From: Rhodocyclaceae bacterium
GTDB taxonomy: Bacteria; Pseudomonadota; Gammaproteobacteria; Burkholderiales; Rhodocyclaceae
Assembly: GCA_025353195.1 (NCBI GenBank)
Contig: JANXRC010000146.1
Location: 998-64,997, forward strand
Direction of reading: 5' to 3'
DNA: 64,000 bases
The notes under the pieces are model-generated. The model saw only the letters and a program-made list of their open reading frames with translations. It did not search any database and was not told the origin of the DNA. The position numbers and the translations under genes were made by a program. Shown here piece after piece: positions 14,806 to 44,277 of the stretch (positions are counted from its first letter, which is position 1; each line of letters begins with the position of its first letter).

Positions 14806-15252
14806 ATGTTCCAAGGTGCGGCGGCACTCAATCTCGATGCCAAGGGCCGGATGGCGGTTCCCGCGCGGCACCGTGATGCCCTGGTGGCATTGGGCGAAGG
14901 TCACCTGGTGGTGACTGCCCATCCCCATCGCTGCCTGCTGCTCTATCCCCAGCCCGCGTGGGAGCCGATTCGCGCCCAGATCCTGGCAGCACCCAGCCTG
15001 CAAGTGGAATCCGCAATGGTGCGGCGTCTTCTGGTGGGCTTTGCCGAAGAAGTGGAACTCGATGGCGCCGGACGCCTGCTGATTTCGCCGTCCTTGCGTC
15101 ACTACGCGGGACTGGAAAAGGAAATCTGGCTGGTGGGGCAGGGTCGCCATTTTGAAATCTGGTCGGCTGCCGGCTGGCAAGCACAGCAGGACGCGATCTT
15201 TGCACTGGGCGACAAACTCTTGCCCCCGGGCCTGGAAAATCTTGCGCTGTGA
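14806..15252 (+). CDS. mraZ: Transcriptional regulator MraZ
   Basis: [10 protein letters not shown] and LDGAGRLLI repeats; GQGRHFEIW; first gene of the dcw cluster. Confidence 0.97.
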
Positions 15253-22195: not shown

Positions 22196-23676
22196 GCGAA
22201 CTGAACGGCAAACACGTCCTCGTTCTCGGCCTCGGTGAATCGGGGCTGGCCTCCGCGCGCTGGTGCGCGCGGCAGCGCGCGCGGGTGCGGGTGGCCGACA
22301 CGCGTGCGGTGCCGCCGTATCTGGAAGAACTGCGGCGCCGTGTCGCCAGCGCCGACTTCCCGCTTGAATTCATTCCCGGCGAGTTCGACAAGGCGCTGCT
22401 CGACGGCATCGACCTGCTGGTGCTGTCACCGGGCCTCTCGGGCGGCCTGATGGTGGTGATTCATGCCCGCGCCGCTGGGATTCCGGTGCTTGGCGAAGTT
22501 GAATTGTTCGCCCGCGGTTTGCGCAGTCTTGGCTGCAGTGCGCCGGTGCTGGCGATCACCGGCACCAATGGCAAGACCACCACCACCGCGCTGACCGGGC
22601 ATCTGCTGCGCGCCGCGGGCAAGACGGTCGGCGTCGCCGGCAATATCTCCCCCGCGGCGCTGAGTGCGTTGATGGATGCGCTGGATGCGGGTGCCCTGCC
22701 GCAGATCTGGGTATTGGAGCTGTCGAGTTTTCAGCTGGAAACCACCGAGACGCTGAATCCTGTAGCAGCAACGGTGCTAAACATTTCCGACGACCATCTC
22801 GATCGCTACATCGATCTCGACGAGTACGCATCGGCCAAGGCCAGGATCTTTCAAAGCGCTGAGGGTGCGCCGGGCGTGCAGGTGCTCAACCGCGCCGATC
22901 CGCGCGTGTGCCGGATGGTGCTGGCCGATCGTCACATCATCAGCTTCGGCCTCGACGCACCGGCTGGCGAGGACGACTTCGGCCTGCGCCCGCAGCGAGG
23001 CGAGCCGTGGCTGGTACAGGGCGAGCGCTTTCTGCTGCCGGCCTCCGAGTTGCCGCTGGCCGGCTTGCACAATGCGGCCAACGCAATGGCGGCGCTGGCG
23101 CTGTGCAGCGCGCTCGGTTTCGATGCTGAAGCCTTGCTGCCGGCGTTGCGCAGTTTCCGCGGCCTGGCGCACCGGGTCGAGAAGGTGGCCGAGATCGGTG
23201 GTGTGACGTGGTACGACGATTCGAAGGGCACCAATGTCGGCGCCACGGTCGCCGCACTGAATGGCATTGGCGGCCAACTGGCCGCCCTGAATAGTCGCCT
23301 CTCTCCCACGGGGAGGGAGGGTGCGTCATTGACGTCTTGCGATCCGCAGGATCGCAAGATCGTGGTGATCCTCGGCGGCGACGGCAAGGGGCAGGACTTC
23401 ACGCCGCTGAAGGCAGCCGTGGCGAGGCATGCGCGCAGTGCGGTGATGATCGGCCGCGACGGGCCGCTGATCGAGAAGGCCATCGCCGCCGCCGGAGTAG
23501 CGATGGAAAGCGCCAACGATATGGAAGATGCCGTGCGTCGTGCCCGTGCGCTGGCGCGGCCGGGCGATGCCGTGCTGCTGTCACCGGCCTGCGCCAGCTT
23601 CGACATGTTCCGCAATTACGAACATCGGGCGCAGGCCTTCATCGATGCAGTGCGCGCACTGGAGGCCGGGGCGTGA
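22192..23676 (+). CDS. murD: UDP-MurNAc-L-Ala:D-Glu ligase, with an internal ~25-aa insert
   Basis: [52 protein letters not shown]. Confidence 0.97.
23295..23325. repeat. Intragenic palindromic element in murD
   Basis: TCG-CCTCTCTCCC-ACG-GGGAGGGAGG-GTGCG: 10-bp stem with one G:T pair; shares flanks with the element at 38437. Confidence 0.7.
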
Positions 23677-33636: not shown

Positions 33637-34063
33637 CACTGCGCAAGAGGCGTTCCAGCGCGTTCTTGAGGGGCGACTCGTTGGGTAGCCCCTGCGCCAG
33701 TGCAGTGAGTCCTTGCTTCTGTTTGACACCCGGCGGAGTGGGCCTTTCGCGTTGAGGTTGCGGCGGAGACGGGTTACGGGCTTGCACTCGGACCTCGATT
33801 TGAGTAACCTTCACCTCCTTGTTTGATAAATCGTCGGCGAGACGCGGTCCGAATTGACGGATCTTCGCCGCGACTGCGCCGTTGGCGGCGTGGATAAAAA
33901 GTTTCCCCAGGCGGAAGTTGGCTACCCGGGCATGAGGCCTTAGCGCCTCCGGCAAAGCGGCTTCCAGAAGGCGCTGGAATTGGAGTAGACGTTGGGCGTG
34001 GGCCGCAAGCCGCGCCATGCTGTCACCGGAGGCAAGGTGTTCCTGGAGACTGCGCGATGTCAT
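33626..34063 (-). CDS. dciA: DciA (DUF721) replicative-helicase loader-like protein
   Basis: AANGAVAAKIRQ motif, IEVRVQ, C-terminal LKNALERLL; conserved position between lpxC and secA. Confidence 0.8.
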   Translation of the reverse strand: MTSRSLQEHLASGDSMARLAAHAQRLLQFQRLLEAALPEALRPHARVANFRLGKLFIHAANGAVAAKIRQFGPRLADDLSNKEVKVTQIEVRVQARNPSPPQPQRERPTPPGVKQKQGLTALAQGLPNESPLKNALERLLRSVKE

Positions 34064-34091
34064 CAAAAACGAACCTGAAGGGAGGGAAGGG

Positions 34092-35039
34092 ATGCATATT
34101 ATTCTCGTCTCTGACCGGCTGGCAACCGCAAGAAGCATTACGCTGACCTGGCGCCATGCGTTTCTTTTTGCGGGGGCGCTGTTTAGCTCGGTCCTTGTGC
34201 TGTCATCGCTGTTTTCCTATGTCACCGTCCGCCACGCCGCAGAAATCCGCCTGCCCTTCCTGCAGGATCTGGTGCGCGCGGTGAATGCCGAAGAAACCCG
34301 GCGTTCCAAGGACTTTGTCCGCGAAAACCTCAATGCCATGGCGGTCAAGCTGGGCGAGATGCAGGCGCAACTGATGCGCCTCGACACCATAGGCGAGCGG
34401 CTCGCAGGTATGGCCGGTGTCAAGCCCCAGGACCTCAAGGCGTTCGAGTCGAAAGCCGATGGTCGTGGCGGGCCGCTGGTGCTGCCTGAGGCGATGTCTT
34501 CAACCGAACTGCAGCGTGCGGTCGACGACCTGGCGCATCAGGTCGAAGCGAAATCCGACGCGATTTCCATGATTGAGTCCCAGATGCTGGAGGACCGGAT
34601 CAGAAAGAACCTGCTTCCCACCAGCCTGCCGGTCGAGGCGCAATGGAACGCTTCAAGCTATGGCTGGCGCGTCGATCCCTTCACCGGTGAACGGGCGATG
34701 CACGAGGGTGTCGATTTCGTGGCGACTCCCGGTACCAGTATTCATGCTGCGGCAGCCGGAGTGGTGATCAGCGCCGAGCGCCATCCTGACTATGGAAACA
34801 TGGTGGAAATTGACCACGGCAAGGACTTGACCACGCGCTACGCCCATACCTCAAGGATCCTGGTCAAGGTGGGGCAGCTGGTCAAACGCGGTCAGAAGAT
34901 CGCCGAGGTGGGTTCTACCGGACGTTCCACCGGGCCGCACCTGCATTTTGAAGTACGCATCCACGGTCTGGCGCAAAATCCGGATCGCTTCCTGCGCATG
35001 GCGCAGGCGACCCAGCGGCCGATCGCACAGCGCAACTGA
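34092..35039 (+). CDS. M23 family metallopeptidase
   Basis: N-terminal TM helix and coiled coil; HEGVDF (HxxxD), YAH, STGPHLHFEV. Confidence 0.93.
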   Translation: MHIILVSDRLATARSITLTWRHAFLFAGALFSSVLVLSSLFSYVTVRHAAEIRLPFLQDLVRAVNAEETRRSKDFVRENLNAMAVKLGEMQAQLMRLDTIGERLAGMAGVKPQDLKAFESKADGRGGPLVLPEAMSSTELQRAVDDLAHQVEAKSDAISMIESQMLEDRIRKNLLPTSLPVEAQWNASSYGWRVDPFTGERAMHEGVDFVATPGTSIHAAAAGVVISAERHPDYGNMVEIDHGKDLTTRYAHTSRILVKVGQLVKRGQKIAEVGSTGRSTGPHLHFEVRIHGLAQNPDRFLRMAQATQRPIAQRN

Positions 35040-35052
35040 GCCACCGAGTGCC

Positions 35053-35084
35053 CGGGGAGGGCCGTCCTCCCCGCGTGCTAAAAT
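35053..35084 (+). promoter_or_regulatory. Hairpin followed by an extended -10 promoter for secA
   Basis: CGGGGAGG-GCCGT-CCTCCCCG, then TGcTAAAAT (35076-35084). Confidence 0.55.
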
Positions 35085-35126
35085 TGCCGCTTTGCTTTTC
35101 CCGCCCAATATGCGGTCGAGCACCCC

Positions 35127-35186
35127 ATGATCACCGGTTTTAGCTCCAGCGTAACGCCCGCTTGCGCAGGCATTGGCTTGCTCTGA
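35127..35186 (+). other. Candidate 19-codon uORF in frame with secA (MITGFSSSVTPACAGIGLL)
   Basis: ATG 35127 to TGA 35184-35186; begins with the same MITGF as SecA. Translation is not demonstrated. Confidence 0.4.
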
Positions 35187-35210
35187 AGCCCGTTTCTGAA
35201 CGACAAAAAT

Positions 35211-37937
<2,727 letters not shown>

Positions 37938-37938
37938 G

Positions 37939-39063
37939 GTGAGCCAGGAGCAGTGCCCGACCCTGACCGAGGATGCAAGCAGTCGCAATGCGGCCGTCTT
38001 CATCCTCGACCAGACGCGGCTGCCGCGCGAAGCGGTCATGCTGCGGCTGACCACAATGGAAGACGCAGCCCATGCCATTCGCGTCATGCAGGTGCGCGGC
38101 GCGCCCCTGATCGGCGCCACGGCAGCCTATGGTGTCGCGCTCGGCCTGGCGGACGATGTCAGCGATGCGCGCTTGCAGCATGTGATCGAAACGCTTGCCG
38201 CGACACGACCGACTGCCGTCAATCTGCATTGGGCGCTGGCGCGCATGCGTCGCGTGCTCCAAGAGTCGGCACTGGCGACACGGCGGGACATGGCCTGGCA
38301 GGAAGCGCGTGCCATCGCCGAGGAAGACAAAGAGGCAAACGCCGCAATTGGAAAGCACGGACTGCCCCTGATCGAGCGCATGCGGGACGCGAAGGTTCGG
38401 TCCAACCATTCCCTTGCGCAGGAAGGGCTGACTTCATCGCCTCCCCCGCTTGGCGGGGGAGGTCGGGAGGGGGTGCGCAGTTATTGTGACGGTGACGCAG
38501 TCAACGTCATGACCCACTGCAATGCCGGCCGTCTGGCGACCGTCGCGCATGGCACGGCCCTGGCGCCGGTCTATGCCGCGCATGGCGCCGGCTTGCCGGT
38601 GCACGTCTGGGTTTCCGAAACGCGACCGCGCAACCAGGGGCTGCTGACTGCCTGGGAACTGCGCGAGGCGGGCGTGCCGCATACGTTGCTGGCGGACAAT
38701 GCCGCCGGCCTGCTGTTGATGCAGGGCCAGGTCGATCTGGTGATCGTCGGCGCCGATCGCATTGCCGCCAACGGCGACACGGCGAACAAAGTCGGCACCT
38801 ATCTCAAGGCGCTTGCGGCGCGCGAGCATGGCGTGCCGTTTTATGTCGCCGCGCCAGTGTCGACCATCGATTTTGCCTGTTCCTCGGGGTCCGCGATCCC
38901 GATTGAAGAACGCGCTGCAGAGGAATTCGGTGCTTCAGTTGCCAACATGGATACGCCGGTGGTCAATCCGGCTTTCGACGTGACGCCGGCAGCTCTTGTC
39001 AGCGGTATCATTTCCGAGCGCGGCATCGCTTTGCCCGGCGCGCTGAGAAAGTGGAACTCATGA
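37939..39063 (+). CDS. mtnA: Methylthioribose-1-phosphate isomerase, with an internal ~30-aa insert
   Basis: VRGAPLIG, TRPTAVNL, THCNAG, ETRPRNQG, GADRIAANGDTANKVGTY, NPAFDVTP. Confidence 0.95.
   Translation: MSQEQCPTLTEDASSRNAAVFILDQTRLPREAVMLRLTTMEDAAHAIRVMQVRGAPLIGATAAYGVALGLADDVSDARLQHVIETLAATRPTAVNLHWALARMRRVLQESALATRRDMAWQEARAIAEEDKEANAAIGKHGLPLIERMRDAKVRSNHSLAQEGLTSSPPPLGGGGREGVRSYCDGDAVNVMTHCNAGRLATVAHGTALAPVYAAHGAGLPVHVWVSETRPRNQGLLTAWELREAGVPHTLLADNAAGLLLMQGQVDLVIVGADRIAANGDTANKVGTYLKALAAREHGVPFYVAAPVSTIDFACSSGSAIPIEERAAEEFGASVANMDTPVVNPAFDVTPAALVSGIISERGIALPGALRKWNS
38437..38477. repeat. Intragenic palindromic element in mtnA
   Basis: TCG-CCTCCCCCGC-TTG-GCGGGGGAGG-TCGGGAGGGGGTGCG: perfect 10-bp stem. 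Confidence 0.75.
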
Positions 39064-43981: not shown

Positions 43982-44277
43982 CAAACACTCCTTGAACACA
44001 AAGTATTGGTGAAGGCCAACGCCGGCATTGCGGGCGTCAGACATAGTGTAACCAAAACATGATCGGGCAATGCCGAATTCTGCCCCGTCCGGCGCCGTGC
44101 GCCAAGTGCTTTGTGGCGGAGGCGCGCTTCGCCTCGTGCCCACCCGCCGGCACGACCTGCCGGACCATGCGCCGGTTTGGTATCGGCTAATATCCTTGCC
44201 GCCGGCCGCCGTGAATGTGTAATGATGGCAGCGCATTGAGAGAACCGGATACTCATACCAAGAGGAGAGTTTGCATC

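Follow-up and report, generated by a model that had tools for sequence, protein, structure and literature searches.

The secA locus and its two start codons

The window analysed here is a stretch of 64,000 nt from one contig of a Rhodocyclaceae bacterium, whose genome is designated G000, with C-numbers for its contigs and G001 onward for other Sulfuritalea genomes. The genes around secA are arranged in the order lpxC, dciA (on the opposite strand), an M23 peptidase gene, secA, and mtnA, and 88 nt separate the end of the peptidase gene from the first of two closely similar start regions (ATG at 35127). The features of this region, in window positions, are the following.

34017..35039, plus strand: M23 peptidase, the upstream gene (Pfam PF01551, E-value 2e-35)
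35054..35072, plus strand: G+C-rich hairpin GGGGAGG-N5-CCTCCCC directly past the M23 stop codon (sequence inspection)
35076..35084, plus strand: extended -10-like box TGCTAAAAT, upstream of both ATGs (alignment)
35127..35141, plus strand: copy A, ATGATCACCGGTTTT, the native secA start, which now opens an upstream open reading frame (uORF) (comparison with empty-site genomes)
35127..35186, plus strand: uORF encoding MITGFSSSVTPACAGIGLL, 19 codons plus TGA at 35184-35186 (translation)
35138..35196, plus strand: repeat element E, short subfamily, TTTTAGCTCC...CTCTGAAGCCCGTTTC (blastn and nhmmer)
35156..35171, no strand assigned: central hairpin of E, GCCCGC-TTGC-GCAGGC, with one C-A mismatch in the secA copy
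35175..35190, no strand assigned: second small stem, GGCTT-GCTCTG-AAGCC, with the uORF TGA in its loop
35197..35210, plus strand: A-rich filler TGAACGACAAAAAT between E and the working start
35211..35225, plus strand: copy B, ATGATAACTGGCTTT, the duplicated first five codons and working SecA start
35211..37937, plus strand: secA, 908 aa (Pfam SecA_DEAD, P-loop_SecA, SecA_PP_bind, SecA_SW and SEC-C)
44008..44056, minus strand: weak, degenerate second copy of E in the window (nhmmer E-value 0.0016; C201:45053-45005)

A hairpin occurs at the position past the M23 stop codon in most congeners in the alignment of secA 5' regions, and a simple scan gave the one in G000 no terminator score. The TGCTAAAAT box is nearly invariant among 23 Sulfuritalea genomes, with the insert present or absent, and is likely the secA promoter. 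A promoter and terminator scan of the leader returned no calls; the box was recognised from the alignment only, and the consensus scan missed it because it has no -35 match.

Copy A is still joined to the native upstream region, and everything in the uORF past codon 5 is encoded by E. The centre of E reads GCCCGC/GCGGGC in other units, with the compensatory variants GCCAGC/GCTGGC and CCCAC/GTGGG, and the second stem belongs to the conserved ...CTCTGAA... end of the element. The filler, which contains an extra out-of-frame TGA and no Shine-Dalgarno sequence, is missing from empty sites and reads TGAnTGAnAAAAA in other species. Copy B stands at the canonical spacing to FGSRN, and, with 35211 taken as the start, the SecA_DEAD profile begins at residue 6. 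A Shine-Dalgarno sequence is absent at both ATGs; the native start context is CCCC, and the predicted fold leaves the A-rich stretch ahead of 35211 unpaired.

A sequence-only reading of this DNA had pointed out that ATGATCACCGGTTTT and ATGATAACTGGCTTT both encode MITGF, lie 84 nt apart in frame and are separated by one in-frame TGA (35184), and that the leader holds a GGCTT-N6-AAGCC stem; all of this is correct. Its four synonymous differences are actually three, at third codon positions (ATC/ATA, ACC/ACT, GGT/GGC). It had also tentatively linked the leader to the mtnA insert through CTTGCGCAGG, which does recur at 38413, but at least two copies of this 10-mer appeared in 12 of 100 shuffles; since the shuffles match it and the mtnA insert is a different hairpin family, the link is put down to chance. 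The in-frame hairpin inserts of that other family (TCGCCTC...GGGAGG) lie in murD (23251-23330) and mtnA (38400-38475), and the one in murD has an 11/12 direct repeat on its flanks (GCCGCACTGAAT / GCCGCCCTGAAT).

The secA site among Sulfuritalea genomes

The secA 5' regions of 22 other Sulfuritalea genomes were aligned, so that 23 genomes were compared in all. Ten of them carry an empty site, ...CCCCATGATCACCGGC, in which the TGCTAAAAT box is followed after about 40 nt by ACCCCATGATC(A/T)CCGGC(C/T)T leading directly into AAGAAGATTTTCGG; the same empty-site read is also given as CCCCATGATC(A/T)CCGGC... into secA. Twelve sites are filled, with one unit in six genomes, two in five and three in one, all placed right after ATGATNNCCGG. 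The unit consists of a start copy, E and the A-rich filler, measures 78-85 nt and closes with TGAnTGAnAAAAA. With ten empty sites, twelve sites of 1-3 units and a core that is a dispersed repeat, the suggestion made from the sequence of an insertion or duplication relic at the start codon is supported. G002, the one single-contig genome in the sample, has an empty secA site.

All insert-bearing genomes have a copy ATGATAAC(C/T)GG(C/G) ahead of CTCAAGAAG. The start-to-start spacing is 78, 81, 82, 83, 84 or 85 nt, mostly no multiple of 3, and the in-frame relation of the two starts in G000 is a coincidence because the unit spacing varies in this way. Codon 2 is the rare ATA in 12 of 12 secA-proximal copies B, as against ATC in 10 of 10 empty sites; an A-run precedes most of the proximal copies and CCCC precedes the empty-site starts, and codon 5 is mostly Leu in empty alleles and Phe in filled ones. 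In G007 (L007:1490-1510), no ATG, GTG or TTG is found at the usual secA start (CACCTCAAGATTTTTGG), which is either a misassembly of the copy-number-variable site in this MAG or a real deletion.

On the secA tree, filled and empty states are interleaved and require at least 3-5 changes; G001 (no unit) is sister to G018 (two units). A single gain of the insert was accordingly discarded, and the pattern, with the Leu/Phe difference at codon 5, suggests recurrent loss through the direct repeats together with allele exchange between species.

In a genome-wide screen for repeated five-residue starts, seven pairs were obtained versus about three in permuted controls, and secA and fabD were the only true cases of duplicated gene starts among them. 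Taken alone, a repeated five-residue start goes only weakly beyond chance, and the reality of the secA observation rests on the insertion polymorphism, 0 to 3 copies at the exact site. The control frequency of about three coincidences per genome and the 289-contig state of the assembly are what could be said for coincidence or an artefact of assembly. Against this, 12 independently assembled genomes have the structure at their secA site, with diverged units, and the core of the insert is a recognisable repeat family, which leaves this explanation with next to no probability.

Variation of the uORF and the leader

The uORF peptide shows no sign of constraint. The minor-allele fractions at uORF codon positions 1, 2 and 3 are 0.151, 0.136 and 0.134; G004, G008, G019 and one unit of G012 are frameshifted by indels of 1-2 nt; and the uORF ATG is lost in G019, which retains the insert. 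These three observations give selection on the peptide no support, and the peptide is most likely a by-product. The 19-aa MITGFSSSVTPACAGIGLL contains no export signal, membrane segment or arrest-like feature, as judged by eye. The predicted fold of the leader (-35.1 kcal/mol) is no stabler than that of shuffled sequences (-39.9 kcal/mol, z = +1.2), so that a riboswitch-like or attenuator structure was also discarded, and Rfam 15 gave no relevant match for the leader at an E-value of 10 or below.

The other proposal of the sequence-only reading, a new leader peptide or readthrough control of secA, finds no support in the non-triplet spacing, the frameshifts, the loss of the ATG in G019, the flat codon-position variation and the unstructured leader; nor is the uORF conserved among the secA leaders of relatives, being absent in 10 of 23 genomes. 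A secretion-monitoring peptide of the SecM/MifM/VemP type, or programmed readthrough or bypass giving a SecA longer by 28 residues, would suit a uORF that lies directly upstream of secA, in frame in this genome and with a single TGA between the starts. Against it, ten congeners do without the uORF, the in-frame relation is not conserved over spacings of 78-85 nt, some units are frameshifted without any codon-position signal, the 19-residue peptide has neither a signal nor a membrane segment, and the same E-encoded peptide occurs upstream of fabD, a gene unrelated to secretion. A readthrough product cannot be conserved because the frames differ between species. None of the traits examined for the SecM/MifM/VemP class was found in the secA uORF, and this reading, which the comparative data already contradict, is very improbable.

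Co-option of an insertion deserves more weight, although it too is unlikely: translation of the uORF would feed the secA start, which has no Shine-Dalgarno sequence, by termination-reinitiation, and the copy number of 0-3 would tune SecA between species. The uORF ATG is retained in 11 of the 12 filled alleles, a stop precedes the next ATG in every unit by 10-27 nt (24 nt in G000), a Shine-Dalgarno sequence is missing at both starts, and the ATA codon 2 in every proximal copy B and the frequent A-run could reflect selection on the start context. Mycobacterial MIRUs, repeat units with small coupled ORFs, offer a precedent (PMC3184786). The kept ATG and the stop before the next ATG would also fit a selected coupling device, but both are explained by the conserved native promoter and start region together with the sequence of E itself. 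Furthermore, G019 keeps its insert without a uORF ATG, sister species with no unit and two units are what near-neutral variation would give, and the leader has no special structure.

A dispersed palindromic repeat characteristic of Sulfuritalea

Element E is a dispersed, imperfectly palindromic repeat of 56-72 nt, of which about 30 copies were found in G000 by blastn and iterated nhmmer, partial or split copies being among the nhmmer matches. The long consensus is TTTTAGTTACGGCCGCTGCGCTTAACGCCGATGAAGCCGGCGTTAGCCTGCACTGAAACTTCGTTTTC; the short subfamily, including the secA copy, is 8 nt shorter and has a GCCCGC-N4-GCGGGC centre. Hairpin positions are paired in 87% of cells compared with 29-48% in slid controls, with some double changes, and the short and imperfect terminal inverted repeats, TTTTAGT/ACTGAAA, are paired in 84% of cells. 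In reverse orientation, E has a precise end next to an A-run and a variable end with filler.

The family model has matches in all 37 Sulfuritalea genomes searched (3-59 each); in 24 other families of the order, 18 gave no match and six gave 1-11 weaker ones. An exact pattern derived from E occurs in more than 116 stretches, and almost all of the matches listed come from Sulfuritalea or from MAGs whose label goes no further than Rhodocyclales, Rhodocyclaceae or Betaproteobacteria. These distributions point to a Sulfuritalea-specific family that is almost absent from the other families of the order. No match at the gathering score was obtained from Rfam 15 for three loci with E arrays.

E has the features of a MITE in being a short, non-coding, dispersed multi-copy unit with terminal inverted repeats. 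A partner transposase or insertion sequence was not found, the two RAYT-like genes of G000 having been checked: these PF01797 (Y1 transposase) genes, on C200 and C164, are flanked by inverted repeats of their own, and neither contig has a match to E. The consensus begins TTTTAG, and E has no GTAG or CGTC tag. Membership of the REP/RAYT system was rejected on the missing tag, the unit length of 56-72 nt and the different ends of the RAYT-like genes. Likewise, an integron attC origin was dropped on inspection, as the RYYYAAC and GTTRRRY-like boxes are just 29 nt apart and form the central palindrome.

Several arrangements of E were observed elsewhere. Head-to-tail arrays are found in other Sulfuritalea at L079:6995-7200 and L068:5830-6010, with periods of 73 and 57 nt, respectively; in the L079 array, short-type and long-type units are mixed, and each is followed by CTTTGCTACG, a copy of the start-adjacent sequence of the neighbouring gene. 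At C221:28552-28654 and C284:6294-6324, the loop of E is split by a second small hairpin element (TCCGCAAGGGATACCGTCCCCGC-TTCCT-GCGGGGACA), and these copies are nested insertions. A perfect 44-nt tandem repeat, ATGTCCGAGTCCCTCTGGGCGAGGACGGTATCCCCCAGTGGGAT, lies on the minus strand of C249 at about 14935-15070, and it shares GGGATACCGTC with the nested hairpin element.

The same architecture at fabD, rplS and dksA

The flanks of 26 full-length E copies in G000 were tested for duplication. The copies at secA, fabD, rplS and dksA score 12-14 of 16, and of the mismatched controls 1.8% reach 12 and none reach 13. All four loci share one layout in the orientation of E, [copy ending TTT(T)]-E-[0-14 nt filler]-[copy ending TTT(T)]-gene body, with the rplS and dksA gene ends on the opposite strand.

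At fabD, G000 reads ATGAAATTTGCACTCGTC-TTTAGCTCC...CACTGAAAACTCG-CGGAGAAACTGA-ATGAAGTTCGCGCTCGTTTTTCCC, with seven duplicated codons, an 85-nt unit and a uORF whose frame differs from that of fabD. The insert is present in 10 of 30 genomes, the others being empty, and the species that carry it are a different set from those with the secA insert. The inner and outer copies remain nearly identical in G005, and up to four synonymous differences separate them in other species. A foreign-allele or recombination origin of the inner copy was rejected on this basis; the near-identity in G005 and the graded divergence elsewhere indicate that the synonymous differences are ordinary drift of a copy under protein selection.

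At the 3' end of rplS, the empty site ...GAAAAGCTGACCCGCAAGGCCTGA is found in 7 of 20 congeners, and the filled site reads GAAAA-ACTTACGCGAAAGGCGTAAG-TTTTCAGAG..(E, reverse)..GGAGCTAAAA-GCTGACGCGCAAAGCCTGA. The native end survives as the outer copy. The inner one still encodes LTRKA-stop and is recoded, by five synonymous changes against the native end, to a perfect 7-bp hairpin followed by TTTT. At the 3' end of dksA, filler and last codons make a 10-bp stem, again followed by TTTT. In both genes (rplS, C165:35506-35558; dksA, C176:2099-2155) a perfect stem lies over the stop codon and the TTTT is that of E, an arrangement that resembles an intrinsic terminator.

Reading frames through E

In the forward direction every frame of the E consensus contains a stop (TAG, TAA and TGA), and in reverse one or two frames are open. 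Because forward E stops every frame, an insertion after secA codon 5 is viable only with a rebuilt start, and E is not translated into SecA. The open reverse frames explain why reverse copies are read through in several genes: by ORF reading only, reverse E stands in frame directly past the start codon (MK...) at C98:13918-13980, C277:16850-16912, C69:4267-4322 and C72:19488-19542. These are a BamA-like ORF of 801 aa (C98) and three signal-peptide or lipoprotein-like ORFs, and each copy adds about 20 residues to the signal-peptide n-region. One forward copy is also in frame, within an ABC-F ATPase (C269:27450-27503; LDRGKLV-SFSSDITPARGHESSLNL-RFPGRF), and this copy is open only because its hairpin loop lost 2 nt.

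Proposed origin and working of the secA unit

These comparisons make it very probable that the secA uORF is the insertion scar of a ~60-base palindromic repeat with a 15-base duplication that rebuilt the start, and not a conserved regulatory leader. E, a MITE/REP-like element specific to Sulfuritalea, would have inserted at the T-run of secA codon 5, along with some 14 nt of A-rich filler, and the gene's first 15 nt would have been duplicated as a direct repeat. The outer copy (35127) would keep the native promoter and translation start and now open a dead-end uORF of 19 codons. As the native start runs into a stop, secA depends on the duplicated start past the forward-oriented E. SecA is most likely initiated at 35211 from the unstructured A-rich spacer, by ribosomes ending the uORF 24 nt upstream, or by both.

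A simple insertion at these positions would destroy an essential gene, so that only rebuilt gene ends are inheritable, and the direct repeats make the unit unstable, with 0-3 per congener. As close relatives thrive with anything from 0 to 3 units, the effect on the level of SecA is probably small; a side-effect on the regulation of SecA synthesis is possible, though it has no support.

The duplication could have arisen from a long staggered target cut by a transposase, from a target-primed route or from a template switch at microhomology. In G000, flanking duplications of 15-23 nt were found at 4 of 26 E copies, most copies being flanked only by T-runs, and 16 copies sampled from other genomes showed no long flanking duplication apart from tandem arrays. 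With most copies having only T-run borders, the data do not support long target duplication as something general to E. In the fabD insert, E ends on its 3' side with CACTGAAACTCG, which is similar to TTCTGAACTCGAGA, the native sequence at the fabH stop, and the filler there may be a diverged copy of the native leader; this would agree with template switching at microhomology or with a duplication extending over about 40 nt. The precise and variable ends of E are also reminiscent of target-primed or template-switch insertion.

A bolder extension would have E insert by a route able to duplicate 15-40 bp of target ending in a T-run, and so enter and rebuild the first or last codons of essential genes. 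The unit left behind (uORF, A-rich spacer and start copy) would then work as a module of variable copy number, with SecA and FabD translation set differently from species to species. As a whole this proposal is unlikely.

Comparison with known elements

Phage 21 and e14 in icd, and islands in the 3' ends of tRNA genes, are integrating elements that carry a replacement gene end. The secA site resembles these in that an insertion within the gene is tolerated, a second and slightly different terminal copy restores the gene, and the displaced copy is left as a relic. They are, however, kilobase-sized, site-specific and recombinase-using, whereas E is about 60 nt long, carries no gene and has four unrelated targets. 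Rickettsia palindromic elements (RPE, cited in PMC3184786) are selfish repeats tolerated in frame inside protein genes, and the reverse copies of E past start codons (BamA-like and lipoprotein-like ORFs) and the forward copy in the ABC-F gene are comparable. Unlike RPE, E at secA and fabD is not translated into the protein, being excluded by its own stops with the start duplicated beyond it. The likeness to SecM, MifM and VemP is one of position only, a short ORF upstream of a secretion gene; in contrast to those leaders, the E-derived uORF has no conserved peptide, export signal or start-masking hairpin and is absent from close relatives.

REPs are recognised by a GTAG or CGTC tag on a 20-40-bp palindrome, and REPs inside ORFs and at NH2-termini, including those of the related genus Thauera, have been described (PMC3733652). 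E shares with REP/BIME sequences and MITEs a short, multi-copy and lineage-specific nature, an imperfect hairpin and short terminal inverted repeats (PMC3733652; PMC3184786), and it likewise occurs singly or in head-to-tail arrays and often abuts or enters coding regions. It differs from classical REPs in its greater length, the missing GTAG/CGTC tag and not flanking RAYT-like genes, and from both REPs and MITEs in the four copies with duplications of 15-23 nt (possibly up to about 40 nt) that rebuild a gene end. A limited literature search found no description of gene-end duplications at such repeats.

MIRU/VNTR units measure 40-100 bp, vary in tandem number, lie in transcribed regions and carry a small ORF oriented as the flanking genes (PMC3184786). 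The secA unit, present 0, 1, 2 or 3 times among the 23 genomes, and the E arrays at other loci are similar, but MIRU ORFs overlap the stop and start of their neighbours and the secA uORF ends about 24 nt before secA, and part of the secA unit is a copy of the first codons of secA. Neisseria REP2 repeats bring a promoter, a site for ribosome binding and an ATG to downstream genes (PMC3184786). At secA, too, a repeat-associated sequence supplies the translation-start context of the gene; the difference is that the ATG and the codons next to it were copied from the host gene and lie outside the repeat.

Meaning for secA and for the element family

The outcome for secA deflates the idea of a new secretion-sensing leader: none is present, and the annotated start should stay at 35211. 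It also carries a caution, in that a leader peptide resembling the N-terminus of the gene behind it can signal an insertion of this kind. The behaviour of E as a family is modestly new and of modest interest to the field of mobile DNA. A genus-specific small repeat entered the first or last codons of the core genes secA, fabD, rplS and dksA, and the duplicated end copy is slowly diverging. Its insertions give rise to dead-end uORFs and new start contexts, as well as terminator-like hairpins at the two 3' ends, and they leave copy-number-variable units that differ between sister species. Selfish repeats can in this way rearrange the point at which translation of an essential gene begins while the gene survives.
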